Shown here one piece after another: positions 3,276 through 50,621 of a stretch of DNA of 64,000 nt. A program made the translations under genes and the position numbers. The notes beneath the pieces were generated by a model. That model had not been told where the DNA came from, did no database searches, and saw nothing but the letters and a program-made list of their open reading frames with translations. The stretch spans positions 99,262,001 to 99,326,000 of the forward strand of contig OX597819.1 in NCBI GenBank assembly GCA_951406725.2, written 5' to 3'. The number at the start of each line of letters is the position of its first letter. The first letter of the stretch is position 1. The stretch comes from Octopus vulgaris (Eukaryota).

Positions 3276-3365
<90 letters not shown>

Positions 3366-4050
3366 GTCGGCCTATCTCCCTGTCTCCCTGTCTGTCTTTC
3401 TTTTCTATCTATTTATTTCACATACACACATATATAAATACGTGCATTTATACATATATGTATGCATACATACATATATGCATGCATGCATGCATACATA
3501 CATACATACACACGTGCACACACACACACACATATATATAGTCAACAGATGAGATCGAGAGAATCTCAATATCAAAAACACTTAGTAGAACCAATGATTT
3601 GAACTTACACTCCAATATCTTTACCGAGGATCATATCAGGAGAGAAGGGAGTAGCTATATGGAGAATCTAAGTGAGTAAATATAGAGACAATGAATCAAA
3701 TAAACAGATAAAATCTTGGGCTAAAATATTCAAAATGTATATACAAGTATACATGTAAAGAGAGAAGGCAAACATAAAATTTCCAGATGTATATATATAT
3801 GTATATATATGGTGGTTATCTACTCCTTATGCAGAGTTTGACCACCTTCTGTACCTACACCTTAAAAGCATCAGGGCATCTGATGAGTGGCTTTTTAAAC
3901 CGGACAATGTTTTGAAATGACACCCACATAGATCGCATATCCGATTTGGACCACCAAGAGCTGCAGATAAGTTCTAATCATTGTGGATCTTAAAATGGCC
4001 TCCGTTAGATTTACAACCCTTCTGGCTTACATTGCACTGAAAGGTGTGCA

Positions 4051-5343
<1,293 letters not shown>

Positions 5344-5750
5344 TATACATACATACATACATACATACATACATACATACATACATACATACATACTGTA
5401 CATACATACATACATACATACTTACATACATACAAGATTGCGAAAGAAATAGCAGCTAATCAAGTGCTTTTTAGCACTAAGATCGAAATCATGATACCAG
5501 GTTAACTGCCATTCCTTTTGCAATCTTGCAGAGGTAAGAGACAATTCTTATTCATTTAGATTTTTTTCCCAATGCCTGTAAAAATTGAGTGATAATTTCT
5601 GTGGCTTCGGAGTTTCTATGACCCCTATTTTTAGCAAAGCTGGTGCTTCTTAGAACCCAAATTATATATATTTTCATATATATTTATTAATTTTCCTATA
5701 TGGTTTTTATGCTTGCGGCCACTAATACAGTAATATTATTATTTCTTATA

Positions 5751-5871
<121 letters not shown>

Positions 5872-6241
5872 TATAGCAAACTTTCTCAGATTACATAGAT
5901 TCAAAGAATTAGAGGGTAGAATGCGTTACAAGTCTGATAGCTGTTTCTGAGTGCTCGAAGTTACTTCATAATGTTGGCAGATTTAATTTATTAAAAATTT
6001 TCAGCCAGTAATGGAATCAAATAAACATTGGTAAATTTGTTCAATTTTCGGTTCTCCTGTACAATAATAATATTGGCCACCCTCTTCCTTAAATTTAACA
6101 CACCTTGATACAGTAAACACGCGTGCATAAAATCGCTACCTTGTGCAGTCTGAGCAATTCTCACACCCTACTCTACAACAATAATAATCTTTTCAAGTAA
6201 TGTGTGTTCACAACACATTCGATTCATTGTTGTAAGGGACA

Positions 6242-6840
6242 TTTGAGACACCGGTGTTTTGACTTTGTTGTCTCTTCAATCAAAAGACACGATAACTATT
6301 CATTTATGGGATAATGAAGCAATAGATTTTTATGATTTAATAAATTATCACGTGCACAGAGAAGAGCGAGAATCAAAACGATGACTTACACTTTCATTCT
6401 TAATACGTTCCGGCAGATTTGAACGTGAATGGTTAATCGCTGATGTATTAGTCTTCGGTAAACATCTCCTTTTAGACAATGCGCGTTGACAACACACTTG
6501 ATTTATTGGTACAAGGGATATTAGTGTTTCGACCTAGTTCTGTCACTCCAGTCAATACTATCATCGAATCAAAGAAACTAAACAAGAATGGTAGCTCTTG
6601 TTTATAGAGTTCAGCAAACAAATTAATTTTGATGCGTACTGATGTCTGTCAAACAAATAATAAATTGCCATGTGCACAGAAAAAAACGAGATTCAAAATG
6701 CTGTCATGTATATATTGATTCTTAATACATTAATACAAATTTAAAAGTGAATATAATTAACCCCTGTTGTTTTGACTTATTTGTGACTCTTCAGTCAAAG
6801 CTACCGACAGATCAATGAAACGAAACAAGAATGATGACAC
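6242..6840 (-). repeat. Old diverged tandem repeat with three degenerate minimal hammerheads (6242-6284, 6515-6555, 6761-6799)
   Basis: First copy reads UUUGA-[U]UGAAGA-GAC-AACAAA-GUC-[A]AAAC-ACCGGU-GUC-UCAAA. Blocks TAAATT..GTGCACAGA (~6341, ~6661) and GAAAC.AAACAAGAATG are repeated. Confidence 0.65.
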
Positions 6841-7007
6841 TTTTATATTAAAACGTTATTCAAATATTTGAAATGTTAGTCAACACGAATATTATAATAA
6901 ATTCTATTCTGTTTCCAATATTGAGTCATCCCATGAATAAATGTTCCGTTCTTTGTCTCAAAGTAACTTTAAGATAATAACATCAGTTAAATATATAACT
7001 ATATATA

Positions 7008-7222
7008 AGGGCGTCGATCTGTCAGAATCGTTAACACGCCGGGCAAAATGCTTAGCGGCATTTCGTCCGTCTTTAAATTCTGAGTTGAAATTCCACTGTG
7101 GTCGACTTTGCCTTAAATCTATTCGCTGTCAATAAAATAAGTACCAGTTGAGCTCTGGGGTCGATGTAATCGACCTACCCGCTCCTCCGAAATTGTTGTT
7201 CATGTGCCAAAATTTCAAGTCA
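7008..7222 (+). mobile_element. SINE with GGTCGACTTTGCC...AAGTACCAG central domain
   Basis: Same family occurs at 14827-15240 (+), 49495-49650 (+), and on - at ~10400-10610, 10770-10985, 12590-13000, 55730-55935, 59325-59495 and 60205-60450. Confidence 0.75.
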
Positions 7223-7529
7223 ATATATAACTATATATTACATGCTAGATAAACTCTATAATGTGTCCTAGATACTCACTATGTTATAAAGAGGTTATAT
7301 ATACGATTGTGTATGCATATGCGTGTGTGAGTCGTTTGTCACCAAGTAGTCGCTAATTGTCTTTGGAAGTGAAGATAATGTCAATAAATCCCAAATTTAT
7401 CATGTACGGTGTTTATTATACTTGTATTTGCCTTTATGTTTAACTGTACATGCCAACGGCCGTTCTGAGTAGTTTCTTTCAGCTCATTTTCTTACAACAA
7501 TATAAACATAAACTGTACGTGATTGTAGG

Positions 7530-7715
7530 AACAGCGTGAAATAGAAGCTAAATCTCTCCTACATCACAACCCACCGTTTTTAACAGATAAGAGATGTTAG
7601 ATAATGTATCTTAGATACTCAAGTCTGAAAAATGATTAGAATACAACGGATGGAATGTTGTTTATCTAACGTTCACTGCACAAGAGTATGAGGTCTGCCT
7701 TGGAGCTAACACAAC
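7530..7715 (+). repeat. Ancient dispersed repeat family (also ~48420-48600, 48930-49100, 57515-57650; reverse ~560-720, 56440-56640, 63660-63900)
   Basis: Shared GAAATAGCAGCTAAAT...CAC..TAC..T.TTAAAA...GATAATGT...TAGATA skeleton, recognised by eye. Confidence 0.5.
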
Positions 7716-7857
7716 GCACAACCACCACCACCACCACCAGCACCCCCACTACTACTACTGCTACTACTGCTACTACTACCACCACAACCACCACCACCAG
7801 CACCACCACTACTACTGCAACTACTACAACCCCATGTTCACAACCATCACAACCACG

Positions 7858-7891
<34 letters not shown>

Positions 7892-8230
7892 ATACTACTA
7901 CTACTACTAACAACAACAACAACAGCAACAGCAACAACAATTTAACAACAATTGCAATAACGGTAGCAACAACAATAACCACAACAACAGCAGTAGCAGC
8001 AGCAGCAGTGACATTCTTTATCATCTTAGTGACAGATAATCAAGCTTTTGTAAAGTTTTTGTGGCTTCAGACAAAATTGAAGAAAACATTTGACACTTTC
8101 AAAATTCTGTTTTTGTCGTTGTTGTGGTGTTTGTTACCATCGTTATCACTGTCCAAAATCACTGTTGTTTCGATCCAGTTCAGCTTTCATTGAACACAAC
8201 AATGGTATTTTGTTAAAGTTATTTCTATAG

Positions 8231-8310
8231 GTCTATAGAACTTATAGTCTGCACTTTTCATATCGACACATCAGATGTAAACGGACAATGTGACCGCGGA
8301 AAAAAACTGG
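8231..8310 (+). CDS. Probable internal exon of the Ly6-like gene (SIELIVCTFHIDTSDVNGQCDRGKKL)
   Basis: TTTCTATAG| acceptor and G|GTAATG donor (phase 1). Phase-compatible with 8486-8514. Confidence 0.5.
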
Positions 8311-8485
8311 GTAATGAGTGTGTACGCCATATTTCGAAAGTTGTTGCCCTTTTTTCAGCACTCCTCTAACCCACTGTTGCATCCTACAATTCTTTAATGT
8401 TTACATGTCAGCCCTAGGAATGCGTCTAATATGTAAATTGGTATGTCCATTAACTTAGCACTGCTGTATGCTGTGGCTATTTAAG

Positions 8486-8514
8486 CAATGTGTTCGGAGG
8501 CAATAGTGTGTCAG
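8486..8514 (+). CDS. Probable 29-nt micro-exon of the Ly6-like gene ([10 protein letters not shown])
   Basis: TTTAAG| acceptor and CAG|GTCAGT donor. Phase 1 in, phase 0 out; joins in frame to VKTSS at 14190 and restores the C...C-x-x-K spacing. Confidence 0.55.
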
Positions 8515-8613
8515 GTCAGTGCTTGAAGCACTCGATTTTTTTTCTTGCTTTTTACCCAATATTTAGATGTAGCTTCAACTGCTTCAAAATTTGCCGTTAC
8601 CAAAAAGAATCAC

Positions 8614-8724
<111 letters not shown>

Positions 8725-9220
8725 ACAAGATAAGGGCAAAAGAAAAATTCTAATGCCAAATATGCCGAAAAAAAGACAAAAATTGTCAATAACCATTATA
8801 ATTTATGCGTCGCGAAACAAACCGATACAAATTTCTTAAAAAATCCGTTATTATCGTATTGGTCCCAATTTCGGGGTTAATTCATAAGAATTTTTCCCTC
8901 TTCAGCGATAAATACGTGAGATATAAGTGAAATACTTACTCATACGCATGGAAAAAGCAAGCACTAAATCCTGAGCACCCCAAATATATCCAAAATAGAA
9001 AATCTTCGGCACATCTCGAGACACGTGTGATTCGAACTAGAAACTTTCACAGAGTGAGAGAATCCGGAAGTGAACACTATTCAATTTATAACTAATGTAG
9101 GATAAAATTTTTTTCGGGAAAAAATTCTTTTTTTTCCCGAAAAATTTTTTATCCTACATTAGTTATATATATATATATAACTAATGTAGGATAAAATTTT
9201 TTTCGGGAAAATTTTTTTAC

Positions 9221-9280
<60 letters not shown>

Positions 9281-9306
9281 GTGCGTGTGTATGTGTGTGT
9301 GTGTGT

Positions 9307-9548
9307 GGAGGCGCGTGGCTTAGTGGATAGGGTGTCAGTACCATGATCGTAAGATTGTGGTTTCGATTCCTGGACCGGGCGACGCGTTGTGTTCTTGAGC
9401 AAAACATTTCATTTCACGTTGCTCCAGTCCACTCAGCTGCAAAAATGAGTAACGCTGCGATGGACTGGCGTCCCGTCCAACTGGAGAACACATACGCCAT
9501 AGAAACCGGGAAACCGGACCCATGAGCCTGGCTAGGCTTTAAAAGGGC
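9307..9548 (+). mobile_element. tRNA-derived SINE
   Basis: A box TGGCTTAGTGG, B box GTTTCGATTCC, and a V-domain-like GCGATGGACTGGCGTCCCGTCCA. Confidence 0.85.
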
Positions 9549-9614
9549 TCCTTTGTTTATTATATATATATATATATATATACATACATATATGTGTGTG
9601 TGTATGTATATATT

Positions 9615-9660
<46 letters not shown>

Positions 9661-9820
9661 CACACACGCACACAGCATTTTTTTTGTGTGTACATCTTTT
9701 TGTGTGTAAGCAGGGATATGTTAGTGTGTATGTGTTAGCATACGTGTGAATGTGAGTGAAAATAGTTTTCTTAAACTTGGAATTCGGACTGTCTCTTCCA
9801 TTATTCTAATATTCTCTAGT

Positions 9821-10141
9821 GAGGGCGCGTGGCTTAGTGGTTAGGGCATTCGGCTCATGATCGTAAGGTTGTGAGTTCGATTCCCGGCGACGCGTTGTGT
9901 CGTTGAGCAAGACACTTTATTTCACGTTGCTCCAGTCTACTCAGCTGGCAAAAATGAGTTGTACTTGTATTTCAAAGGGTCAGCCTTGTCACTCTCTGTG
10001 TCACGCTGATTATCCCCGAGAACTACGTTAAGGGTACACGTGTCTGTGGAATGCTCAGCCATTTGCACGTTAATTTCACGAGCAAGCTGTTCCGTTGATC
10101 GTATCAGCTGGGACCCTCGTCGTCGTAACCGGCGGAGTCTT
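9821..10141 (+). mobile_element. tRNA-derived SINE
   Basis: A and B boxes present; 3' half is shared with 16776-16955 (reverse). Confidence 0.85.
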
Positions 10142-10645
10142 TTAAAGTCTTTAAATATTCTCTAACATTCTATCTCCCTTTCGTTATTTGCTTTTCTTTC
10201 TTTATTTTCCTTCCTGATTTTTCTCCCTCTTTTACTCCTCCCTCATTTTTGTTCGCCTATCAATTTTCATTCCATCTCACCTTAACATCTTATGTTTCCA
10301 TTCTCCTCATCATCTCTGAAGCTACTTATTTCTACCTTCTGTCTTCCTTCTACCTACGATTACACTATAACAGAATAGAAATGAAATAAGGTATTATAAC
10401 TGATAGGTTCTAATTTAGACACAACGTCAGCAGATGTGAGAGGAGGTAATGACCGATTATATTGACCGAATACATGACTTTTAATTTGTGTTATCGAATC
10501 GGGAAAAATGAAAAGCAAAGTCGACCTCGACATAATTTGAACAAAGTAAAGTATCGTAACTAAGTACCACAAGTCTTATTCTCTGACGCTCTAAAAATTT
10601 TACCAATCCACACTGCAAAATAGCAAAAACAGTTACAGCAGCAGC

Positions 10646-10678
<33 letters not shown>

Positions 10679-10987
10679 AAGAAGAAGAAGAAGAAGAAGA
10701 AGAAGAAGAAGAAGAACAACAACAACAACAACAACAACAACGTCATCATCAACATCAACAATTGTAATAATTCCTTCTGCTGTAGGTACAAGACTTCTTG
10801 GAATTTTTTGGGAAGTTTTTATAGCTTACATCAACACCAGTGCTTAACTGGTGCTTATTTTATTGGCCCCGAAAGGATTAAAGGTAAATCAACCTCGGCG
10901 GAATTTCAACTTAGAAGTCATAGGCAGAAAAAATGTCGCTAAGCATTTTGTCCGACATGTTAACGGTTCTGCCAGCTCGTCACTTTG

Positions 10988-11038
<51 letters not shown>

Positions 11039-11039
11039 T

Positions 11040-12526
<1,487 letters not shown>

Positions 12527-13178
12527 GAAGAAGAAGAAGAAGAAGAAGAAGAACAACAACAACAACAACAAAGACGTAATGATCTGACTCAGATACAAGG
12601 CCAGTAATTTTAACGGGAAAAAGTTAGTCGATACCATCAACAGAGCATTTGATTACCACATGTTATATCAACCGCGGAAGGATGAACGGCAAAGCGGAGC
12701 TCGACAGTACTTGAATAGAATATAAAGAACCCGGACAGATACCCCAAGGCGTTTCTTCCGACGCTCTAATAATTCTGACAGCTCGTCGCCTTTAAAGGCT
12801 TCTGATTTAGGCACATGGTCAGCAATTTTAATGGGAAGGTGTTAGTCGATATCATCGACCTCAGTACTGATCTGGAACTTTATTTTATCGACCCGAAAAG
12901 AAGGAAACGCAAAGTTGATCCTGGTGGGATTTGAACTAAATACTGCAGAGCATATTTTTCCCTGACGTTCAACCAATTTGACCAACTGATTGCCTTTGTT
13001 AATAATCATAATAATATATAAAATGTTTAAGCAATCAATTTCACGTGGAATACTTTGTACTGGATCTTACCTTTGCTGAAGTGAAATCAAAAATACTAAA
13101 TAATTAATCATAATTTGATCTATATTGCTTAGAACGTTTAACACCGGCTAATAACTATTGAATGCTATCGATTAGACT

Positions 13179-13179
<1 letters not shown>

Positions 13180-13219
<40 letters not shown>

Positions 13220-13299
13220 TGATGATGATGATGATGATGATAATAATGATAATAATAATAATGATAATAATAATAATAATAATGATAATAATGATGATG

Positions 13300-13363
<64 letters not shown>

Positions 13364-13567
13364 TAATAATAATAAATAGCAATAATGATAATAATAATTT
13401 CTAACTTAGGCATTATGCTAGCAATTTTAAGGGGAGGAGGTTAATCGCTGCTATCGACTCTAGTACTTGTTTAATTTTATCGACTCTTCTGAGGTTAACT
13501 TGTAGTCGATTCAATCAAATATAGCTGCTCTTTTTTAAATATTAAATTCTGATTCAGCGAAACTAGA

Positions 13568-13659
<92 letters not shown>

Positions 13660-13696
13660 TAATAATATTAATAATAATAATAATAATGATAATAAT

Positions 13697-13746
<50 letters not shown>

Positions 13747-13826
13747 TGATGATGATGATGATGATGATAATAATGATAATAATAATAATGATAATAATAA
13801 TAATAATAATGATAATAATGATGATG

Positions 13827-13881
<55 letters not shown>

Positions 13882-14004
13882 TAATAATAATAAATAGCAA
13901 TAATGATAATAATAATTTCTAACTTAGGCATTATGCTAGCAATTTTAAGGGGAGGGGAGGTTAATCGCTGCTATCGACTCTAGTACTTGTTTAATTTTAT
14001 CGAC
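13180..14004. repeat. Tandem duplication of (AAT/GAT)n plus a SINE fragment
   Basis: 13180-13485 is repeated at ~13700-14004 with the same GAT pattern. Confidence 0.85.
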
Positions 14005-18261: not shown

Positions 18262-18734
18262 TTGAAGTATTAATTTATAAAAATATGGTAAAGTAAAAAA
18301 ATTCACTTTACCACACACCGAACTTTTCAGAAATAGCAGCCAAAAGTTTGGCTATTTCTTCAACTGCAAATAAAAGTCTCCAGACAATGCATACTCAGAA
18401 AATAACTCACATAGGTATAAGGGAAAAACAATGAAAGATCACATCATATCGTATATGGATGTGATCTTTCATTGTTTTTCCCTTATACCTATGTGAGTTA
18501 TTTTCTGAGTATGCATTGTCTGGAGACTTTTATTTGCAGTTGAAGAAATAGCCAAACTTTTGGCTGCTATTTCTGAAAAGTTCGGTGTGTGGTAAAGTGA
18601 ATTTTTTACTTTACCATATTTTTATAAATTAATACTTCAAATATACCGTAAATGGTCTTTACATACCGAATACTGCTTGGTCGAATTTATTAACAATTAA
18701 TTAATTCTACCCCTTTTTTGATAACAATATAATG

Positions 18735-18735
<1 letters not shown>
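18261..18735. repeat. Near-perfect ~385-bp palindrome (18261-18645) plus tail; diverged relative of family B
   Basis: Arms of ~185 bp are reverse complements around ~18446-18457. Sequence aligns by eye to family B 25570-25725 (AGGGTA.AATTAATTAATT...ACCAAG...GAAATAGCAGC). Confidence 0.85.
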
Positions 18736-18775
<40 letters not shown>

Positions 18776-19469: not shown

Positions 19470-19673
19470 AAAAAAAAATTGGAGTCCACAACAAGTAGTA
19501 CGGCTGGACACATATTTCATTCACTACACTTGTTTCTACGCAACGTAGTTCTCCAGGCGTGCAGGTACTTGATTATGCAACCGCTTCCGCACTCCCTCTT
19601 GTTGACTCTAAAATTTTTCAATTATATATACATACATACATACATGTTGACTCTAAAAATTTTCAATTATATA

Positions 19674-19709
<36 letters not shown>

Positions 19710-19721
19710 TATACATATATA

Positions 19722-19754
<33 letters not shown>

Positions 19755-19912
19755 ATATAATTGAAAAATTTTAGAGTCAACAAGAGGGAGTGCGGAAGCG
19801 GTTGCATAATCAAGTACCTGCACGCCTGGAGAACTACGTTGCGTAGAAACAATTGTAGTGAATGAAATATGTGTCCAGCCGTACTACTTGTTGTGGATTC
19901 CAATTTTTTTAT
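19470..19912. repeat. Inverted repeat (~160-bp arms around a microsatellite) with a degenerate hammerhead in each arm (19821-19860 +, 19522-19561 -)
   Basis: The same spurious ORF appears on both strands. Motif CGC-CUG[G]AGA-ACUACGUUGCGUA-GAAAC-AAUU-GUA-GUG. Confidence 0.75.
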
Positions 19913-22242: not shown

Positions 22243-22246
<4 letters not shown>

Positions 22247-22932
22247 AAGAGAAGGAGAAAGAGCGGCTAAAGCCAAACACCAACGAGTTGAATGGCCGTT
22301 GCTTTTTAAAATAAAAATATAATAAAGATAAACGGACATTTCTTCTTGGTATGAAAATGATGTAAGGCGGGCGGAATAAATGAAGTCAATATAAAACTTG
22401 TTTCACGATTAATGTACAAAATCAATTCTTAAAAATTAAAAAAATTTCCTATCTTCAGTTGTATATACCATATTTAAAAAATATATAATAACTATAAAAT
22501 ACATTTACTTTCATTTATCCACATCAATTCGTAACCTAAGGTATTTAGTATATTGAAAAAAGTAAGAGAGGGAGAAGAAACATACTTTTTCATCTAGATT
22601 CACACACGCTTTCTAATAATTTACTTAATAGGCCGATAGAAGCAAATTATGTATATGGTATATACAACTGAAGATCGGAAAACGTGCTTCTAAATTAAAT
22701 TAATTATTTTTCTAAATTGATTTATTTAGTTTGTACATTAATTGTAAAACTTGTTTTGTATTGAGCATGGTAACTAATAAAATAGACTTCATTTATTCCA
22801 CCCGCCTTACATAATTTTCGTACCAAGGAGAAAAGTCCCTTTGTTTTTATTTTATGTTTAATTTAAAAGACAACGGCCATTCAACACGTTGGAGTTTCGC
22901 TTTAACTGCTCTTTCGCCCTCTCTTTGTCTAC
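22243..22932. repeat. Diverged inverted repeat with hammerhead-like relics (22387-22461 -, 22665-22763 +)
   Basis: Arms 22243-22475 and 22652-22932 are imperfect reverse complements. Motif CAA-CUGAAGA-long AU stem-(G/A)AAAC..(A/G)UA-UUG. Confidence 0.65.
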
Positions 22933-23990: not shown

Positions 23991-24115
23991 AATCCTTAAA
24001 TAATTACTTTCTTTTAGTAACTGTTACATACTTAATTAATAAGCAGCTTTTCCCATTATAATATAGATATACATATGTGTATGTATATATGTATGTATAT
24101 ATGCATATATATATG

Positions 24116-24588
<473 letters not shown>

Positions 24589-24603
24589 TATATATGTTAT
24601 ATA

Positions 24604-25115
24604 TAACAAAAATATAGATTATTTTTGGGACAATTGTTTCGCTATCAATGAATTAAATGTAATATTACTTACAAAAAAAATCCATTTGTAGCTCGTCAGC
24701 CAAGACTATCTGGATGAAATCCACTCCAATCACACGCCAGATTTTACCATAACGATAAATACGCGTGTGGTTCAATTGATTACATCCGACGTTATAATTC
24801 AAATGCCCCAACCAACAGCGCGCCAAACTCTCACGGAAAACAAATACAGCATTTAGAAATAAATGCAGCATAATTATAATTAATTAATAAGGGTGAGAGA
24901 ATTAGATACTAATTTAATAGTATATGCTTTATTCAACACCAAGTGGCCTAGTGCTACGAGAAAACCTGGATTATTATAATATTTTATAACATATTATAAT
25001 ATTTTTACAAAATAAATATAAGAGAGTGGTCACTATAATGCTCACTCTAGCACCAGTTAATCCAAAAGGTTTTTAACCACGAAAATACATGTTTCCCATG
25101 AAAGTCAGCATCATA
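24604..25115 (-). mobile_element. Solitary diverged copy of the family A unit, with hammerhead at 24625-24703
   Basis: Colinear with the array unit and flanked by long (TA)n. HHR reads UUGG-CUGACGA-GCUA...UAGC-GAAAC-AAUU-GUC-CCAA. Confidence 0.9.
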
Positions 25116-25118
25116 TAA

Positions 25119-25419
<301 letters not shown>

Positions 25420-25420
25420 A

Positions 25421-29069
<3,649 letters not shown>

Positions 29070-29158
29070 TGATTGATTGATTGATTGATTCTAGTTTCAG
29101 CTTATGAGCTGTGGCCATGCTGGGGCACCGCCATTTGGTGTTGCTACTTGGTTTCACT

Positions 29159-32100
29159 TCATGGAGGCTTTCTAGCAACTGCTATTTGGTGCATGAGAGA
29201 GTTCGATGCAGCTGCCCTCATCTGCCCCTCCTGCCGTGAAGTTGGTTCATCTGGGACACCTGACAGGAAGAGATCCAGCTTCATTTTAAAGACATCTGTA
29301 TCCACCCCATGCAGGTCTCTCAGGTTCTTCGGGAGGATATTGAATAGCTGTGGGCCTCGGAAGCCCAGGCTATCACAGAATCTTGTCCTACATCTTGATG
29401 GCAGGTTTGGAGTCCTAGGCACCACGCAGTGGCGCCCAGTTCTGGCATTTGCGTAACTCTCGATGCCAAAGTTCAGGACACTTCCCTCCAGGATCTTCCA
29501 GATGTATATTATGGCATATCTTTCCCGCCTACGCTCCAGGGAATATAATTTTAATCTCTGAGTCTTTCCCAGTAGCTTACATTCTGCATAGAGGCTATCT
29601 TCTTTGTGTAGCTTCGTTGGATCGCCTCAAGTTCTGTGATCAACTTGACACTGGATGGTGACCATAGCTGAGAGCAATAGTCAAAGTGGCTTAGGACAAG
29701 TGTCTTCCAGAGGACCATCATGGTTTCTTGTTCTCTTGTTCTAAAGGTTCTAAGAATCCATCCAGCCAGCCGTCTACATTTCATTGTCAGTTTAGCAACA
29801 TGTACATGAAAGGTCGCGTCATCACTCATGTGAATACCCAGGTCACGCACTGATTGTGCCTCTGGGATTGCAATCCCTCCGGGTCCAGTGTATTCATTGG
29901 GTATTGCATTCAGTTTTGCATGCTGATAGTATAAAGCTTGAAACTTTCCAGCATTGAACTGCATGCTATTCTTTTCAGCCCACTTGTATATTTCGTCCAG
30001 CTCACATTGCAGGTGTTTAGTGTCCTCAGGGTTCTGTATTGCCTGTGAAACTTTTGTATCATCTGCATAACTTGTGATCGTGGCTCTCTGCGTGGCTGAG
30101 GGCATGTCTGAGAGGGCCATTATGAACAGTAGTGGTCCCAGAACAGTGCCCTGCGGAACACCGCTCACTATTTGTGTGTTAATGGAGGTGGCCCCATTGG
30201 CTACTACCACCTGACTTCTATCCTTCAGAAAGTCATGAAGCCATTCTCCCAGTTTTCCAACTATGTTGAGATCACGCAGTTTGTGACATATCATTCCATG
30301 ATCGACTTTATCAAAGGCCTTTGCAAAGTCGAGATATATCACTTCCACATTTGAGTGGTTGAGCAGCCGTTTCAGCACCCAGTCATAGTGTTGTAGGAGC
30401 TGAGTTAAACAGCTTCTCCCTGGTCGGAAACCATGTTGGGTGTCGGGCAGCAAGTCATTCTCTTCAAGGAAGGTGATCAGCTTCCTTCTGACTATTCGTT
30501 CCATGACCTTGCTGATGTGTGAGGTCAGAGAGATAGGTCTATAGTTCTTGGCTTCCGCTCTGCTACCTCCTTTATGAATGGGGCATATTTTACCTTCCTT
30601 CAGTTTTCCTGGAAGTTTGCCAGCTGCAAGGAAGCTCTGAAAGAGGAACTGCAGTGGTCTTGCTAGGACTCTCTTACATGCTTTTAGGAGGATTGCCGGG
30701 AATCCATCGGGGCCAGTAGCTGAGTCTGTTTTCATTTCATCTATAGCCTTGGTTACATCGTCTTCCTTTATATCGATGTAATCTATCGTCGCCGCCTCTG
30801 ATTTTATATCTGCAGTGGTAAAAAAGTCAGTTGGATTGGTGATTTGGAGATGCCCAAGGGGTGGAGTGAAAACACTCTTGAATTGCTCATTCAGTATTTC
30901 ACTTACCCTCATTGGTTTTCCTGTAAGTGTGCCATCCTTTTCGAGGAGTGGCCCTATTCTACAGTGCACTGTAGCTGTTTCTTTGGCATACCTGTAGAAA
31001 GCTCCTGGGGTTAGATTTTATGTTTTCTATAGCCCAGGCTTCTTTGTCTGCTCTTTCTTTTTCATGGGAGAGTTGCAGACATTTTTCGATTTCCAACAGT
31101 TTTATTTTTGGGCGGGACTTTTCACTGCTTTCAATCTGTTTGTTTAGGCGATTTGAAAATTTCGTACGCCGTCTCATTAAAATTTTCCTCTCTCTGGGGA
31201 TTTTGTTCTGTGTACAGTGGCCTTTCTCTCTGGGACACATTTGTAGCATATGGCTTGCATTACAGACATGAATTGTTGAAGTTTCACGTCGATGTCTGGC
31301 GAGGAGAGACATTTTTTGTTTGAGGATCTCTTTCTCAATTTGTTTCCAGTTTGCCTTATGGTAGTTCAAGCTGGAAAGATTTCGAGGGTTTCTTGTAGGC
31401 TGCATGTCCGTGCTCTCTTTTGGCNNNNNNNNNNNNNNNNNNNNNNNNNNNNNNNNNNNNNNNNNNNNNNNNNNNNNNNNNNNNNNNNNNNNNNNNNNNN
31501 NNNNNNNNNNNNNNNNNNNNNNNNGAGAGTTGCAGACATTTTTCGATTTCCAACAGTTTTATTTTTAGGCGGGACTTTTCACTGCTTTCAATCTGTTTGT
31601 TTAGGCGATTTGAAAATTTCGTACGCCGTCTCATTAAAATTTTCCTCTCTCTGGGGATTTTGTTCTTGTGTACAGTGGCCTTTCTCTCTGGGACACATTT
31701 GTAGCATATGGCTTGCATTACAGACATGAATTGTTGAAGTTTCACGTCGATGTCTGGCGAGGAGAGACATTTCAGGCCAGTTTTGTTTGAGGATCTCTTT
31801 CTCAATTTGTTTCCAGTTTGCCTTATGGTAGTTCAAGCTGGAAAGATTTTGAGGGTTTCTTGTAGGCTGCATGTCCGTGCTCTCTTTTGGCCCGTACATG
31901 GTCAGCTCTATCATGTTGTGATCCGAGAGTAGTGTCGGTGTCACTTTCACATTATGGATGAGATCCATGTCATTTGTGAAGCAGAGATCCAGTGTGTTAC
32001 CTGCCCTGGTTGGTTGGAGTATTACCTGCTCCATGTACAGGGTGTTGATGAGGTTCAGGAGGGACCTCGCCTGTCCTCGTTCACATCTTGTCATTCCTGG

Positions 32101-32721
32101 GAGAGAAAGGCCCTCGGGCCATCTGACATTGGGCAGATTGAAGTCTCCCATAAGAAGCACACCTATGTGTTGTTCTAATGTGGTTAGAATTTCTTCTATT
32201 TTTATAAGGCAGTCTTCAAACTTGCCCACATGGCTTGGGGCATCTGGAGGGCGATATGTAGCACACACAACTACATCAAGTTGCCTAATATGTACAATTA
32301 GTGTGTCACACACCGAGTTTGAGTATGACAAGAGGACCTGGGGTGTGAGGTCCTCACGGATGTACATAGCAACACCTCCATGACTCCTTTCTTTCCTGTC
32401 GGTCCGTAGTACAGCATACTGTGGTATGTGTAACTCCGCATCTGCTATGTCCGGTTTCAGGTGCGTTTCTGTAAGTGCTATGCATAAGGCTTGATTGCAT
32501 GCAACAAAGTCTCTCAGGAACGGGATCTTTGTCCTGTTACTGAGTGTTTGCAGTCCTCTGATGTTCAGTAGGAGTATCGAGGTGAGGTGTACGTTGTTGC
32601 CGGCGGTGTCCATCCTGTGTCTGTTTGCTGTGGTGGTCTGGTATATAGTGGGTAGTCCCACCTGCGGGCTTGGGTTTGATGAAGCCAGGTCAGCTGCTGT
32701 ACAATCTTTTGTGCCATGCAC
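29159..32721 (-). CDS. LINE ORF2 (AP endonuclease plus reverse transcriptase), broken by 1-bp indels and a gap
   Basis: Endonuclease motifs [28 protein letters not shown]; RT motifs [37 protein letters not shown]. Confidence 0.93.
31425..31524. other. 100-N assembly gap with overlapping flanks
   Basis: 31068-31424 is repeated at 31525-31892, differing mainly by small indels. Confidence 0.95.
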
Positions 32722-33476
32722 AAAAAAGATTGTTGCTCAGCAGCTGCTCTTTCGACAACATCATGTTGGCTGTTTGTGGCGCGCACAACATCTGCGTACC
32801 TCCGCTTTGGGGCAGGTGGTGCGTAGTCCATCCCTTTTCTTTGTGTTGATGGTTTGTCCATCTGCCTCGTGTCTCTGTGGCAGGGTCCCCGATGTGCAAA
32901 GCGGCAGCCTGCACCTTCCTTTCCGTGCCAGCAGGAACCTCTCAGGTAGAACATACACACCCGTGTGCGCTGTTTGGTTCCATCCTTTGCGGTTCCACTT
33001 CTACTCCTGGTTGTTTCACTCTTTGGTCCTGCTTGAGCTTTTTCTTTTCCTTTAGCTCTTCCAGTCCTTCTTTTAGTTCTTCTTCCTCCCTCTACCTCTT
33101 CACCGGGTTCTCCGTCTCCATGGCCCTTGCTGCCGGTTGGAGAACTTGCACCTGGGTTCACTTCCCGGGCAGGTTTCTCATTCAAAACCTCCTCCTGGGC
33201 GTCCACCAGGTGGGGGTGACTTCTTTCATCGTCTCCATTCTTGCCATCTTTGCCCCGCTCGTTCTCAAAGATGGCATCAAGTGCGCCAATGTGCGACCGT
33301 ACAAGCGCATATGAGCGCACGAATTCCTGTCTCTTTCGCTCCATCTGAGCCGCTGTCCTCTTGTAGCCTCTGCTCTTCAGCGCAGCCGCAATCACCTCGC
33401 TAGGGCTATCTCCGCCGGCGCACTCCCATGCTCGTACGAATAAATCCAGCTCGTCACGTCTCCATGCTCTGGACAT
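32565..33476 (-). CDS. LINE ORF1 (Myb/SANT-like N-terminus, CCCH zinc finger)
   Basis: 303-aa ORF; WRRDELDLFVRAW...GYKRTAAQMERK and CMFYLRGSCWHGKEGAGCRFAH. Lies directly upstream of, and overlaps, ORF2. Confidence 0.8.
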   Translation of the reverse strand: MSRAWRRDELDLFVRAWECAGGDSPSEVIAAALKSRGYKRTAAQMERKRQEFVRSYALVRSHIGALDAIFENERGKDGKNGDDERSHPHLVDAQEEVLNEKPAREVNPGASSPTGSKGHGDGEPGEEVEGGRRTKRRTGRAKGKEKAQAGPKSETTRSRSGTAKDGTKQRTRVCMFYLRGSCWHGKEGAGCRFAHRGPCHRDTRQMDKPSTQRKGMDYAPPAPKRRYADVVRATNSQHDVVERAAAEQQSFLCMAQKIVQQLTWLHQTQARRWDYPLYTRPPQQTDTGWTPPATTYTSPRYSY

Positions 33477-33529
33477 GCTGGATAATCCGTCTATCCGTTT
33501 ATCTATCTAATTATGTTCGAGAGAAGACA

Positions 33530-34660
33530 GGAAGATATTAAGGCTAATTAGAAGATAGAGTACTTGAAAAAGAAATATTAACAATATTAAAATTTGTGTA
33601 AAAACGTTATTTGGGTAAAAACGTTATTTAATCTTAAGGCTAATTAGGAGATAGAGTATCTGAAAATATATTAGCAATATTAATATTATATTAGAGTGTG
33701 GGTAAAAAAACGTTATTTAATCTTAAGGCTAATTTGGAGATAGAGTATCTGAAAATATATTAGCAATATTAATATTATATTAGAGTGTGGGTAATATTAA
33801 ACGTTATTTAATTTAATCTTAAGGCTAATTAGAAGACAGAGTATCTGAAAAATTATATATACAATATTAAGCAATATTAACCGTTATTTAATTTAATCTT
33901 AAGGCTAATTAGACGTTATTAATATTAAACGTTATTTAATTTAATCTTAAGGCTAATTAGAAGATAGAGTATCTGAAAATATATTAGCAATATTAATATT
34001 ATATTAGAGTGTGGATAAAAACGTTATTTAATCTTAAGGCTAATCAGGAGATAGAGTATCTGAAAATATATTAGCAATGTTAATATTATATTAGAGTGTG
34101 GGTAATATTAAACGTTATTTAATTTAATCTTAAGGCTAATTAGAAGATAGAGTATCTGAAGAAGTATTAACAATATTAAAACAATATTAAACGTTATTTA
34201 ATTTAATCTTAAGGCTAATTAACAATAATTATTAACAATATTAAACAATATTAAACGTTATTTAATTTAATCCTAAGGCTAATTAACAATAATTATTAAC
34301 AATATTAAACAATATTAAACGTTATTTAATTTAATCCTAAGGCTAATTAACAATAATTATTAACAATATTAAACGTTATTTAATTTAATCCTAAGGCTAA
34401 TTAGACGTTATTAATATTAAACGTTATTTAATTTAATCTTAAGGCTAATTAGAAGATAGAGTATCTGAAAAATTATTAAAACAATATTAAACGTTATTTA
34501 ATTTAATCTTAAGGCTAATTAACAATAATTATTAACAATATTAAACTATATTAAACGTTATTTAATTTAATCCTAAGGCTAATTTGACGGTATCAATATT
34601 AAACGTTATTTAATTTAATCTTAAGGCTAATTAGAAGATAGAGTATCTGGAAAATTATTA
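33530..34660. repeat. AT-rich compound minisatellite in the putative LINE 5' UTR
   Basis: Core AACGTTATTTAA(TTTAA)TC(T/C)TAAGGCTAATT repeated many times with variable spacers. Confidence 0.9.
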
Positions 34661-35293
34661 TATCGAGAACAGTTATTGAAAATGTAAACAAACCAAATGA
34701 CGATCGCAACTTTAACTAAGATGTGGGCCTAAGTGAAAGATAAAATAGAATAATAAATAAAATATGAAATAGATGAAATTGATACTTAATCCAACAATGT
34801 GGTCTGGATAATTTTTTTGGTTTACGGGATTTTTTCGGGAGAGATGCTTCTTTTTTCTTTCTTGCAGGAGATAACTTGATTCAGTTATTTTTGCACCATG
34901 TGCGTTTCGGCGAAAACTATATTAAACGTTATTTAATTTAATCCTAAGGCTAATTTGACGGTATCAATATTAAACGTTATTTAATTTAATCTTAAGGCTA
35001 ATTAGAAGATAGAGTATCTGGAAAATTATTATATCGAGAACAGTTATTGAAAATGTAAACAAACCAAATGACGATCGCAACTTTAACTAAGATGTGGGCC
35101 TAAGTGAAAGATAAAATAGAATAATAAATAAAATATGAAATAGATGAAATTGATACTTAATCCAACAATGTGGTCTGGATAATTTTTTTTTTTTTGGTTT
35201 ACGGGATTTTTTTCGGGAGAGATGCTTCTTTTTTCTTTCTTGCAGGAGATAACTTGATTCAGTTATTTTTGCACCATGTGCGTTTCGGCGAAA
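34545..35293. repeat. ~370-bp direct duplication within the LINE 5' region
   Basis: 34545-34913 is nearly identical to 34914-35293. Confidence 0.9.
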
Positions 35294-35517
35294 ATGAAAA
35301 TTACTGTGTATATGTATATATTTATATATATATTTTTTTAAATATTTTTAACCAGAGTGTTCTAGTGATCTCTATGACTTAGAGTTTTACGTTTTGCAAC
35401 TACAGTGGGTTATTTCGCCGTTCAATGCAGACTTTTTCACAGAGCAAAGGCAATCACGTCTTTCTCTGCTGAAAACGGAACCATATATATATATATGCAT
35501 ATATATATATATATATA

Positions 35518-36302: not shown

Positions 36303-36688
36303 ATAAATAAATATATAAGAGAGTGTTCACTATATTGATCACTCTAGCACCAGTTAATCCAAGAGGTTTCAACCACGTATAATATATATGTTTCCCATGA
36401 AAGCCGGTACGACTGTTAGTTCACACGGACAGGGCAAATATAAAAATAACAAAATATACAGATATATCTTGGGACATATATATATATATATACATGATAT
36501 ATATAATGTACATATATATATACATAATCCATTTGTATCCAAGGCTATCTATGATGAATATCCACTCATATCACACGCCAGATATATATAATAACGATAT
36601 ATATATATATCATATATGATATACATCGGACGTATATATATACATATATGCCCCAACCATACAGCGCCATATATATACGGATATATAT

Positions 36689-36761
<73 letters not shown>

Positions 36762-36801
36762 TACTATATATATAATAGTATATATATATATCCACACCAA
36801 G

Positions 36802-36858
<57 letters not shown>

Positions 36859-39800
36859 TTCACAAAATAATATATATATACATGTTCATATATATATATA
36901 TAGCACCAGTTATATATATATATATACACGATATATATATATATGTTTCCCATGAAAGCCGGTACGACTGTTAGTTCACACGGACAGGGCAAATAAAAAA
37001 TAACAAAAATACAGATTATCTTGGGACAATTGTTTCGCTATTAATGAATTAAATGTAATATTACTTACAGTAATCCATTTGTAGCTCTTCAGCCAAGGCT
37101 ATCTTGATGAAATCCACTCAATCACACGCCAGATTTTACCATAACGATAATTACGCGTGCGGTTCAATTGATTACATCGGACGTTATAATTCAAATGCCC
37201 CAACCAACAGCGCGCCAAACTCACGGAAAAAAACAAATACAGCATTTAGAAATAAATGCAGCATAATTATAATTAATTAATAAGGGTGAGAGAATTAGAT
37301 ACTAATTTAATAGTATATTTATTCCACACCAAGTGGCCTAGTGCTACGAGAAAACCTGGATTATTATAATATTTTATAACATATTATAATATTTTCACAA
37401 AATAAATATAAGAGAGTGTTCACTATATTGATCACTCTAGCACCAGTTAATCCAAGAGGTTTCAACCACGAAAAATATATGTTTCCCATGAAAGCCGGTA
37501 CGACTGTTAGTTCACACGGACAGGGCAAATAAAAAATAACAAAAATACAGATTATCTTGGGACAATTGTTTCGCTATTAATGAATTAAATGTAATATTAC
37601 TTACAGTAATCCATTTGTAGCTCTTCAGCCAAGGCTATCTTGATGAAATCCACTCAATCACACGCCAGATTTTACCATAACGATAATTACGCGTGCGGTT
37701 CAATTGATTACATCGGACGTTATAATTCAAATGCCCCAACCAACAGCGCGCCAAACTCTCACGGAAAAACAAATACAGCATTTAGAAATAAATGCAGCAT
37801 AATTATAATTAATTAATAAGGGTGAGAGAATTAGATACTAATTTAATAGTATATTTATTCCACACCAAGTGGCCTAGTGCTACGAGAAACCTGGATTATT
37901 ATAATATTTTATAACATATTATAATATTTTCACAAAATAAATATAAGAGAGTGTTCACTATATTGATCACTCTAGCACCAGTTAATCCAAGAGGTTTCAA
38001 CCACGAAAAATATATGTTTCCCATGAAAGCCGGTACGACTGTTAGTTCACACGGACAGGGCAAATAAAAAATAACAAAAATACAGATTATCTTGGGACAA
38101 TTGTTTCGCTATTAATGAATTAAATGTAATATTACTTACAGTAATCCATTTGTAGCTCTTCAGCCAAGGCTATCTTGATGAAATCCACTCAATCACACGC
38201 CAGATTTTACCATAACGATAATTACGCGTGCGGTTCAATTGATTACATCGGACGTTATAATTCAAATGCCCCAACCAACAGCGCGCCAAACTCTCACGGA
38301 AAAACAAATACAGCATTTAGAAATAAATGCAGCATAATTATAATTAATTAATAAGGGTGAGAGAATTAGATACTAATTTAATAGTATATTTATTCCACAC
38401 CAAGTGGCCTAGTGCTACGAGAAACCTGGATTATTATAATATTTTATAACATATTATAATATTTTCACAAAATAAATATAAGAGAGTGTTCACTATATTG
38501 ATCACTCTAGCACCAGTTAATCCAAGAGGTTTCAACCACGAAAAATATATGTTTCCCATGAAAGCCGGTACGACTGTTAGTTCACACGGACAGGGCAAAT
38601 AAAAAATAACAAAAATACAGATTATCTTGGGACAATTGTTTCGCTATTAATGAATTAAATGTAATATTACTTACAGTAATCCATTTGTAGCTCTTCAGCC
38701 AAGGCTATCTTGATGAAATCCACTCAATCACACGCCAGATTTTACCATAACGATAATTACGCGTGCGGTTCAATTGATTACATCGGACGTTATAATTCAA
38801 ATGCCCCAACCAACAGCGCGCCAAACTCTCACGGAAAAACAAATACAGCATTTAGAAATAAATGCAGCATAATTATAATTAATTAATAAGGGTGAGAGAA
38901 TTAGATACTAATTTAATAGTATATTTATTCCACACCAAGTGGCCTAGTGCTACGAGAAACCTGGATTATTATAATATTTTATAACATATTATAATATTTT
39001 CACAAAATAAATATAAGAGAGTGTTCACTATATTGATCACTCTAGCACCAGTTAATCCAAGAGGTTTCAACCACGAAAAATATATGTTTCCCATGAAAGC
39101 CGGTACGACTGTTAGTTCACACGGACAGGGCAAATAAAAAATAACAAAAATACAGATTATCTTGGGACAATTGTTTCGCTATTAATGAATTAAATGTAAT
39201 ATTACTTACAGTAATCCATTTGTAGCTCTTCAGCCAAGGCTATCTTGATGAAATCCACTCAATCACACGCCAGATTTTACCATAACGATAATTACGCGTG
39301 CGGTTCAATTGATTACATCGGACGTTATAATTCAAATGCCCCAACCAACAGCGCGCCAAACTCTCACGGAAAAACAAATACAGCATTTAGAAATAAATGC
39401 AGCATAATTATAATTAATTAATAAGGGTGAGAGAATTAGATACTAATTTAATAGTATATTTATTCCACACCAAGTGGCCTAGTGCTACGAGAAACCTGGA
39501 TTATTATAATATTTTATAACATATTATAATATTTTCACAAAATAAATATAAGAGAGTGTTCACTATATTGATCACTCTAGCACCAGTTAATCCAAGAGGT
39601 TTCAACCACGAAAATATATGTTTCCATGAAAGCCGGTACGACTGTTAGTTCACACGGACAGGGCAAATATAAAAAATAACAAAAATACAGATTATCTTGG
39701 GACAATTGTTTCGCTATTAATGAATTAAATGTAATATTACTTACAGTAATCCATTTGTAGCTCTTCAGCCAAGGCTATCTTGATGAAATCCACTCAATCA

Positions 39801-41460
39801 CACGCCAGATTTTACCATAACGATAATTACGCGTGCGGTTCAATTGATTACATCGGACGTTATAATTCAAATGCCCCAACCAACAGCGCGCCAAACTCTC
39901 ACGGAAAAACAAATACAGCATTTAGAAATAAATGCAGCATAATTATAATTAATTAATAAGGGTGAGAGAATTAGATACTAATTTAATAGTATATTTATTC
40001 CACACCAAGTGGCCTAGTGCTACGAGAAACCTGATTATTATAATATTTTATAACATATTATAATATTTTCACAAAATAAATATAAGAGAGTGTTCACTAT
40101 ATTGATCACTCTAGCACCAGTTAATCCAAGAGGTTTCAACCACGAAAAATATATGTTTCCCATGAAAGCCGGTACGACTGTTAGTTCACACGGACAGGGC
40201 AAATAAAAAATAACAAAAATACAGATTATCTTGGGACAATTGTTTCGCTATTAATGAATTAAATGTAATATTACTTACAGTAATCCATTTGTAGCTCTTC
40301 AGCCAAGGCTATCTTGATGAAATCCACTCAATCACACGCCAGATTTTACCATAACGATAATTACGCGTGCGGTTCAATTGATTACATCGGACGTTATAAT
40401 TCAAATGCCCCAACCAACAGCGCGCCAAACTCTCACGGAAAAACAAATACAGCATTTAGAAATAAATGCAGCATAATTATAATTAATTAATAAGGGTGAG
40501 AGAATTAGATACTAATTTAATAGTATATTTATTCCACACCAAGTGGCCTAGTGCTACGAGAAACCTGGATTATTATAATATTTTATAACATATTATAATA
40601 TTTTCACAAAATAAATATAAGAGAGTGTTCACTATATTGATCACTCTAGCACCAGTTAATCCAAGAGGTTTCAACCACGAAAAATATATGTTTCCCATGA
40701 AAGCCGGTACGACTGTTAGTTCACACGGACAGGGCAAATAAAAAATAACAAAAATACAGATTATCTTGGGACAATTGTTTCGCTATTAATGAATTAAATG
40801 TAATATTACTTACAGTAATCCATTTGTAGCTCTTCAGCCAAGGCTATCTTGATGAAATCCACCAATCACACGCCAGATTTTACCATAACGATAATTACGC
40901 GTGCGGTTCAATTGATTACATCGGACGTTATAATTCAAATGCCCCAACCAACAGCGCGCCAAACTCTCACGGAAAAACAAATACAGCATTTAGAAATAAA
41001 TGCAGCATAATTATAATTAATTAATAAGGGTGAGAGAATTAGATACTAATTTAATAGTATATTTATTCCACACCAAGTGGCCTAGTGCTATGAGAAACCT
41101 GGATTATTATAATATTTTATAACATATTATAATATTTTCACAAATAAATATAAGAGAGTGTTCACTATATTGATCACTCTAGCACCAGTTAATCCAAGAG
41201 GTTTCAACCACGAAAAATATATGTTTCCCATGAAAAGCCGGTACGACTGTTAGTTCACACGGACAGGGCAAATAAAAAATAACAAAAATACAGATTATCT
41301 TGGGACAATTGTTTCGCTATTAATGAATTAAATGTAATATTACTTACAGTAATCCATTTGTAGCTCTTCAGCCAAGGCTATCTTGATGAAATCCACTCAA
41401 TCACACGCCAGATTTTACCATAACGATAATCACACGCCAGATTTTACCATAACGATAATT
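36303..41460 (-). repeat. Tandem array of ~9.6 copies of a 535-bp non-coding unit, each intact unit carrying a hammerhead ribozyme (retrozyme / Penelope pseudo-LTR-like)
   Basis: Marker GTTTCCCATGAAAGCCGG recurs at ~36390, 36945, 37481, 38016, 38551, 39086, 39620, 40155, 40690, 41223. Units are nearly identical, have no ORF and are flanked by (TA)n. Confidence 0.95.
37020..37097 (-). ncRNA. Type I hammerhead ribozyme, family A (further copies 37556-37633, 38091-38168, 38626-38703, 39161-39238, 39696-39773, 40230-40307, 40765-40842, 41299-41376)
   Basis: Minus strand reads CUUGG-CUGAAGA-GCUA...(49-nt stem II)...UAGC-GAAAC-AAUU-GUC^-CCAAG. Core is complete, stem I is CUUGG/CCAAG, stem II is GCUA/UAGC plus AUGGAUUA/UAAUUCAU plus UGUAA/UUACA, stem III is palindromic and the triplet is GUC. 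Confidence 0.92.
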
Positions 41461-41508
41461 ACACTCTCTTATATTTATTTTGTGAAAATATTATAATATG
41501 TTATAAAA

Positions 41509-41673: not shown

Positions 41674-45285
<3,612 letters not shown>

Positions 45286-50197: not shown

Positions 50198-50621
50198 CAC
50201 TGAAGTCGAAGAGTAATTGTCTCTGAAGTAGTGCTGGGTAGACCCAATTGGCAGCGGTATTAGTGGGTGCCATCTGAGGCACGGACCAGGCTGGTAGACA
50301 GGGACCATAGATTGATTTCATTGTGTGCCTTGGTGGAAATTCTGCACCGAATGGAGATACGTCGGGAAGGCTCGAACTTAAAACATTTGAAGCTTCATGT
50401 GGAAAAGAACTAGAACAAAGACCTTTCGAGTTTGTGCAAAGAGTTTTATCTGGTGAAGGAGTAAATCGTTTTTCATCTCGAAGAATATCCTCAATAGAAA
50501 GAACACGTATTGTGTGTTGCATCTGTTGCTGTCCTACTTTACCGTTCTGTTGTTGGGAGCATTTCGTTTCTTCACAAAGTTCTGGGTTCTTTAGATTATT
50601 GTCGTCGTACATATTTCTCGC
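50198..50621 (-). CDS. Coding exon with eh1-like Groucho-binding motif; probable N-terminal exon of a transcription factor (possibly homeobox)
   Basis: Acceptor TTTTTTTCTCTTAAAATCAG| and donor AGTG|GTAAGA; open frame, LSIEDIL motif, S/P/Q-rich. No homeodomain exon seen in this window. Confidence 0.6.

Follow-up and report, generated by a model that had tools for sequence, protein, structure and literature searches.

A stretch of Octopus vulgaris DNA holds a tandem array of a hammerhead-bearing repeat (family A) and, about 11 kb from it, a solitary copy whose catalytic core differs from that of the array at a single position, N7. The question is what kind of element this solo copy represents, and whether its otherwise intact core reflects selection on ribozyme function. 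We addressed it within 64,000 nucleotides of the forward strand of contig OX597819.1 (assembly GCA_951406725.2, positions 99,262,001 to 99,326,000; hereafter the window), which is AT-rich animal DNA full of microsatellites. The family A features are as follows.

24604–25113, minus strand: solo family A copy, near unit length and permuted (BLAST, 93.8% over 24604–25104)
24625–24703, minus strand: type I hammerhead motif of the solo copy (descriptor and alignment)
24057–24603: (TA)n tract flanking the solo copy on its 3' side (sequence)
25116–25559: (TA)n tract flanking the solo copy on its 5' side, common to family B (sequence)
36305–41464, minus strand: family A tandem array of 535-bp units with nine intact hammerhead motifs (repeat comparison and descriptor)
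41462–41508, plus strand: inverted 47-bp piece of the unit at the array 5' end, running into (TA)n (BLAST)
~36430–36944, minus strand: array unit interleaved with TA repeat (alignment)

The solo copy and the array are both on the minus strand, 11.2 kb apart, each within (TA)n, and the unit has 33% GC with no ORF of 120 aa or more inside it. The eight full array units compared differ from one another by 0–1 substitution, and the array is therefore counted here as one sequence; the solo copy is 93.2–93.8% identical to these units over about 500 bases by BLAST. It had been described as differing from the array at many sites, and differences are present, but they amount to only 19 substitutions in 491 aligned bases plus eight indel events. 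The solo copy is missing 30–40 nt of the unit, starting approximately 58–67 nt after the monomer cleavage site and ending 25 nt past the next one, and neither of its ends coincides with those of the array. These odd ends could result from copying from a circle, from priming at any AT-rich site, or from erosion in assembly. The array unit at ~36430–36944 is likely an assembly consensus artefact, and because TA repeat has been blended into it, TA-flanked ends elsewhere in the assembly may be unreliable. At the array 5' end, the inverted 47-bp piece extends about 30 nt beyond the array's other end. We also observed that the 5'-most solo bases (25105–25113) differ from the array yet extend the same long helix, and that loose ends in contigs from another run (X2) have a third variant there, marking a possible case of stem covariation beyond the ribozyme.

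Read on the minus strand, the solo motif consists of the stem I 5' strand UUGG (24703–24700), the core CUGACGA (24699–24693) with C at N7 (24695), a 52-nt stem II closed by GCU/AGC, GAAA-C (24640–24636) followed by AAUU, G-U-C with C17 at 24629, and the stem I 3' strand CCAA (24628–24625), with the cleavage site predicted between 24629 and 24628. Stem III is a palindromic C-AAUU-G of 1–2 bp. The elements of a type I hammerhead (CUGA-N-GA, GAAA, UH, three helices and an open helix I) are thus all present. All nine array motifs read CUGAAGA, which confirms the N7 change, and the reported retention of GAAAC, AAUU, GUC, the stem II base and UUGG/CCAA also stands, as none of the 32 bases of the core, stem I, stem II base and stem III is substituted. 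The extra A of an A-run following CCAA was placed by the aligner inside CCAA, giving one apparent change, although the four pairs are intact either way. At the fifth position of stem I, where the array has a C-G pair, the solo copy has mismatched C and A, and one stem II pair is lost.

Support for a real ribozyme comes from two further families in the window with which family A has no BLAST similarity beyond 11–16 bp words.

25560–27409: family B, an unrelated 565-bp unit in an inverted and tandem layout within (TA)n (descriptor and self-comparison)
8720–9220, minus strand: family C, with a single type I hammerhead (core at 8905) and 5' inverted repeats, in (TA)n (descriptor)

Family B contains type I hammerheads (CUGAUGA, C-GUAC-G) at 26612 and 27177 on the plus strand and at 25906 on the minus strand, with U at N7, U-U at the stem II base and a GUAC loop; 10 additional nucleotides are inserted into stem III of the copy at 25906, and the family B monomer folds with z = -4.8. 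Family C has a stem I of 6–7 bp and a longer stem III, and no second copy of it was found in the window. A relative of family B (71% alike) forms a perfect palindromic insertion in (TA)n at 18263–18737, where it has an 80-bp extension at one end, no hammerhead, and ends near those of family B. What the three hammerhead families have in common is CUGA-N-GA, GAAA, UH and a paired stem I, the letters of which differ (UUGG/CCAA in A, UGAG/CUCA in B and UUAUCG/CGAUAA in C), with a palindromic stem III in both A and B. N7 is A in the family A array, C in the solo copy, U in family B and A in family C, and U, A and C at this position are all represented among the natural Penelope-type hammerheads listed in a supplement of PMC4209133. 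The proposal that N7 is the only free core position does not hold, as H17 also varies (C, U and A) among the hammerheads of the window.

Our hammerhead descriptor matched none of 5000 shuffled family A units and three of 5000 shuffled family B units, none of the three with a palindromic tetraloop. Within the window it gave 16 hits, comprising ten in family A, three in family B, one in family C and two further rows, one of which, a loose match at 849, is taken as chance. Rfam hammerhead models gave no match to the motif at the gathering score or at E values up to 10, and the 138 low-scoring Rfam hits are mostly to TA-repeat microRNA models; the 49–52 nt stem II may exceed what the hammerhead models accommodate. 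An exact 20-nt pattern from outside the core recovered four loci in metagenomes, all chance matches of 20–26 bases, and none in viral contigs. Judged from its sequence, the family A motif is very probably a real hammerhead, and the shuffles together with families B and C, which have only the core and covarying stems in common with it, support this better than does the argument from selection, which is weak.

The earlier note proposed that there is selection on ribozyme function, and comparison of core conservation with the unit average had been set beforehand as the test; no significant excess was found. At 3.9% divergence between the solo copy and the array, the absence of changes from 32 bases has p = 0.27, and their absence from the 12 core bases p = 0.62. 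When masks of the same shape were slid along the unit, 187 of 535 were equally unchanged in this pair, and the longest run identical between solo copy and array (85 nt) lies outside the ribozyme. Adding contig variants from X2 and a further run (X3) to those of the pair gives at least 27 variant sites and p = 0.18, or about 0.09 with indels, and 147 of 535 slid masks are clean when scored against this larger set. For this count 20 of the 30 listed variant rows were kept, ten rows at 37909–37924 having been dropped beforehand; four of the dropped rows also occur in one X3 contig. Approximately 50 variant sites would be required for zero changes in 32 bases to reach p < 0.05. Selection on ribozyme function is plausible for the family, but the solo/array pair fails to show it, the two copies being too similar (94%).

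Comparisons within the ribozyme point in a different direction, with qualifications. The variants listed are denser in the 79-nt ribozyme domain than elsewhere in the unit (9/79 versus 18/456, p = 0.01), and inside the domain they avoid the constrained bases (0/32 versus 9/47, p = 0.007). Both comparisons are post hoc and only suggestive, given that the borders of the domain were set with the data already in view and that the variants are linked; for the solo/array pair alone, the test inside the domain gives p = 0.04. The solo copy breaks eight predicted pairs of the array fold, against a random mean of 8.5 (p = 0.48). N7 changes are tolerated in hammerhead assays, and variation at N7 within a retained core is seen in any functional hammerhead family and is statistically uninformative in one pair; it would carry greater weight if copies across the genome showed covariation and circular RNA. 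We infer that C in place of A at N7 is tolerated and came to the solo copy from its source subfamily.

At least 11 of the 19 solo substitutions, among them that at N7, are also present in contigs from X2 or X3, with C at N7 accounting for a depth of 265 of 1924 in X2, and we therefore regard the solo copy as a member of a different subfamily rather than a decayed piece of the window array. Of the four X2 variants in stem II, read by hand, two convert an A-U pair to G-U, one lies in a bulge and one in a loop. Among the sequencing runs listed, 20 of 24 (eight studies, two organism labels) hold part of the family A unit, none of them catalogued as RNA, and four of the runs were mapped to it. Summed contig depth over the unit in X2 is about 1,600–14,000 in 30 of 30 bins, which we do not count as expression because the RNA label of this run is guessed, there is no silent control, and contigs cannot show ends, strand or circularity. 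In raw DNA data of X22, 11 reads fell within 10 of the 30 bins of the unit, none on the ribozyme. Apparent coverage in raw DNA reads of X21 (21 partial hits) was taken as spurious, all hits being less than 90% alike and confined to a single AT-rich stretch.

Beyond the TA tracts, the 1-kb outer flanks of the solo copy and the array have no homology. The description of the solo copy as an independent insertion in a separate (TA)n 11 kb away is borne out by these unrelated flanks and by the presence of solo-type variants elsewhere. Segmental duplication spanning the solo copy and the array was considered and rejected, given the unrelated flanks and the 98.6% identity of neighbouring LINE copies compared with 93.8% for the family A copies. 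Inverted heads are present at the family A array, at families B and C and at 18263–18737, and the array, family B and 18263–18737 each combine a microsatellite target, an inverted 5' copy and one extended end. The solo copy has a TA target but lacks the inverted copy and has ends unlike the array's, with target-site duplications unreadable within TA. In one X3 contig, the unit sequence gives way to a terminal TA run at the position of the array's left (shorter) end. The non-homologous flanks, (TA)n targets and inverted ends suggest Penelope-like mobilisation; no Penelope-like ORF (reverse transcriptase and GIY-YIG) was found within the window, where the only reverse transcriptase ORFs are those of an AP-endonuclease LINE, and the mobilising partner is thus a predicted one. 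The claim that the family is mobile rather than a local satellite is accordingly sound as to mobility, on the evidence of the unrelated flanks, the recurring substitutions and the inverted end, but the alternatives it offers are not exclusive, retrozymes occurring in tandem as well as in dispersed form.

The family A monomer has a predicted fold with z = -7.1, with none of 100 shuffles as stable; the 535-nt molecule is self-paired between its two ends, and 68% paired as a circle. The solo copy folds with z = -5.0, and in both solo and array copies the hammerhead fold lies 5–6 kcal/mol above the minimum-energy fold. The self-duplex of stem III (the CAAUUG palindrome in context) is predicted at -7.8 kcal/mol. 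Strong folding is not specific, because one of six control stretches folds as well, a stretch with an inverted repeat reaching z = -7.9. Refolding of the whole unit favoured the changes in the solo copy (4 of 150 random mutants were as stable), but we do not count this result, because it takes the array as ancestral, and solo and array copies may each have diverged from a progenitor that folded better.

These properties closely resemble those of animal non-LTR retrozymes as described in the available parts of PMC7229834 and bioRxiv 10.64898/2026.07.22.740005, namely a tandem unit that is non-coding, low in GC and carries a single type I hammerhead, a highly self-paired monomer, occurrence both as arrays and as dispersed 'solo' monomers, and a proposed dependence on Penelope-like elements. 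In family A we find tandem type I hammerhead units (nine motifs at 535-bp spacing in the array), a non-coding sequence with GC below 45%, and a monomer that is highly self-paired by its z-score; the family thus passes every testable criterion for an animal non-LTR retrozyme, with linear and circular monomer RNAs as predicted products. The 535-bp unit exceeds the 150–450 bp range given in the accessible text of PMC7229834 and falls inside the 51–972 bp of bioRxiv 10.64898/2026.07.22.740005, molluscan (mussel) examples being 350–390 bp in the accounts available. Relative to the retrozymes described there, stem II is unusually long (49–52 nt) and stem I short. An 'active' locus has at least two consecutive units, each with a complete hammerhead (Li et al. 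2026), as the array does; the solo copy has a single motif and is therefore classed as a solo monomer, a class already named and counted in the available portion of bioRxiv 10.64898/2026.07.22.740005.

We therefore favour, with a probability of roughly 0.8, the reading that the solo copy, with its intact type I hammerhead motif, is a dispersed monomer of a non-autonomous non-LTR retrozyme family, for which Penelope-like copying into (TA)n is predicted. Following the published model, the family A array would be transcribed into multimeric RNA, in which neighbouring CAAUUG palindromes would pair into a double hammerhead that cuts after GUC. Cutting would release the highly self-paired 535-nt monomer, which should be able to circularise, and a Penelope-like reverse transcriptase and GIY-YIG endonuclease would then copy it into (TA)n, a process expected to yield arrays, inverted ends and truncated monomers. 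In the available text of PMC4209133, metazoan type I motifs with a helix III of 1–2 bp and a palindromic loop cleave poorly alone and are active as tandem dimers. The newt and axolotl satellite-2 hammerheads (HHR_Amex1), compared by description only, resemble family A in having a single-pair stem III and a palindromic tetraloop, and the HHR_Amex1 monomer cleaves poorly and the dimer efficiently according to the portion of PMC7229834 available; HHR_Amex1 differs in having canonical contacts between loops 1 and 2, none of which were identified in family A. In the partial account available for Xenopus, cleavage in vitro was found for only one of nine predicted retrozyme dimers. From its sequence, the solo copy itself probably cuts poorly and cannot release a monomer, and is a probable dead end given its single hammerhead, 1–2 bp stem III and missing 30–40 nt. 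Any purifying selection would then have acted on its source lineage, and its intact core likely reflects that lineage and the youth of the copy.

A closely related explanation is that the family A unit is the pseudo-LTR of an autonomous Penelope-like element, with the solo copy and the array being 5'-truncated leftovers and local amplifications that go through no separate retrozyme RNA cycle. The hammerhead belongs to the type associated with Penelope-like elements, having a stem I of 4–5 bp, an enlarged stem II and a small palindromic stem III that requires a dimer, and truncated elements with single motifs are common among Penelope-like elements (PMC4209133, in the sections available). The TA targets and inverted heads are equally compatible with it, given that Penelope-like elements are marked by partial tandems, an inverted 5' copy, a 30–40 bp extension at one end and a bias to microsatellites including (TA)n (bioRxiv 10.1101/2021.04.23.441226, in the text accessible). 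However, family A has no attached reverse transcriptase/GIY-YIG ORF in the window and is amplified alone, eight nearly identical units following one another head to tail with no intervening ORF, and the entire 535-nt monomer is self-paired end to end. We consider a pseudo-LTR origin without an RNA cycle unlikely, although the two readings overlap, because retrozymes have been proposed to derive from pseudo-LTRs in the literature available.

A further alternative is a satellite spread by DNA-level recombination between TA tracts, in which the hammerhead would be a relic under no current selection and the N7 change a matter of luck. Zero changes in 32 bases would be expected 18–27% of the time, pairs are broken at the random rate, and the solo copy and array have the same orientation 11 kb apart, all as such a satellite would predict. 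Against this, the chance that a single core hit falls on N7 is only 1 in 13, the listed variants within the ribozyme domain avoid the constrained bases, three unrelated families have intact cores, and inverted heads are a mark of retrotransposition, so that we regard recombination of a relic satellite as most improbable. Nor is the solo copy readily explained as a misplaced or error-rich consensus of array reads lying between two TA tracts. The blending of TA repeat into the array unit does make TA-flanked ends unreliable, but the recurrence in other samples of at least 11 of the 19 solo substitutions, most of which create no TA repeat, indicates that an artefact could alter the ends of the solo copy and not its subfamily variants; an assembly origin for the copy is scarcely credible.

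Returning to the retrozyme reading, we found no description of a cephalopod or octopus hammerhead retrozyme in the open literature, with supplements partly covered, and family A would extend hammerhead retrozymes to cephalopods. Penelope-like elements of Octopus vulgaris are reported in PMC13282606, the main text of which, in the part available, does not mention ribozymes. Three unrelated hammerhead families lie within 33 kb, each located in (TA)n and bearing inverted ends in the Penelope style, and this agrees with a recently made proposal under which animal retrozymes are Penelope-like elements that lack autonomy. A more speculative extension, which we offer tentatively and consider doubtful, is that octopus has several unrelated, active (TA)n-targeted retrozyme families with long-stem-II hammerheads, and that the solo copy, permuted and very nearly of exact unit length, with ends corresponding neither to a cleavage site nor to those of the array, is a cDNA directly recording reverse transcription of the circular RNA. 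If true, these families would offer a natural system in which to test the circle-to-genome step of retrozymes, as yet unproven.

Several other elements are present in the window. Two copies of a LINE with AP-endonuclease and reverse transcriptase (29090–33500 and 41697–44642, minus strand) are 98.6% alike and have a (TGAT)n tail adjoining (TA)n, the first spanning an N gap (31425–31524) with a local duplication. Directly upstream of the first copy, 33530–35295 consists of complex AT-rich tandem repeats (periods of 48–89) and a 371-bp duplication, and no hammerhead was found in this region. Two 98.7% identical copies of about 550 bp lie in tandem at 11190–11740 and 11907–12456, each within (TAA)n, and may represent 3' ends of a TAA-targeting Dong/R4 element or its SINE partners. 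Elements bounded by long terminal inverted repeats are located beside microsatellites at 19472–19910 (repeats of 149 bp at 98.7%) and 22244–22928 (147 bp at 80%), and are either MITE-like elements or inverted Penelope-type insertions. On the minus strand, 50160–50600 is a homeobox gene exon, 96% identical to the ceh-28-like protein of Octopus bimaculoides (one hit among 163 candidates).
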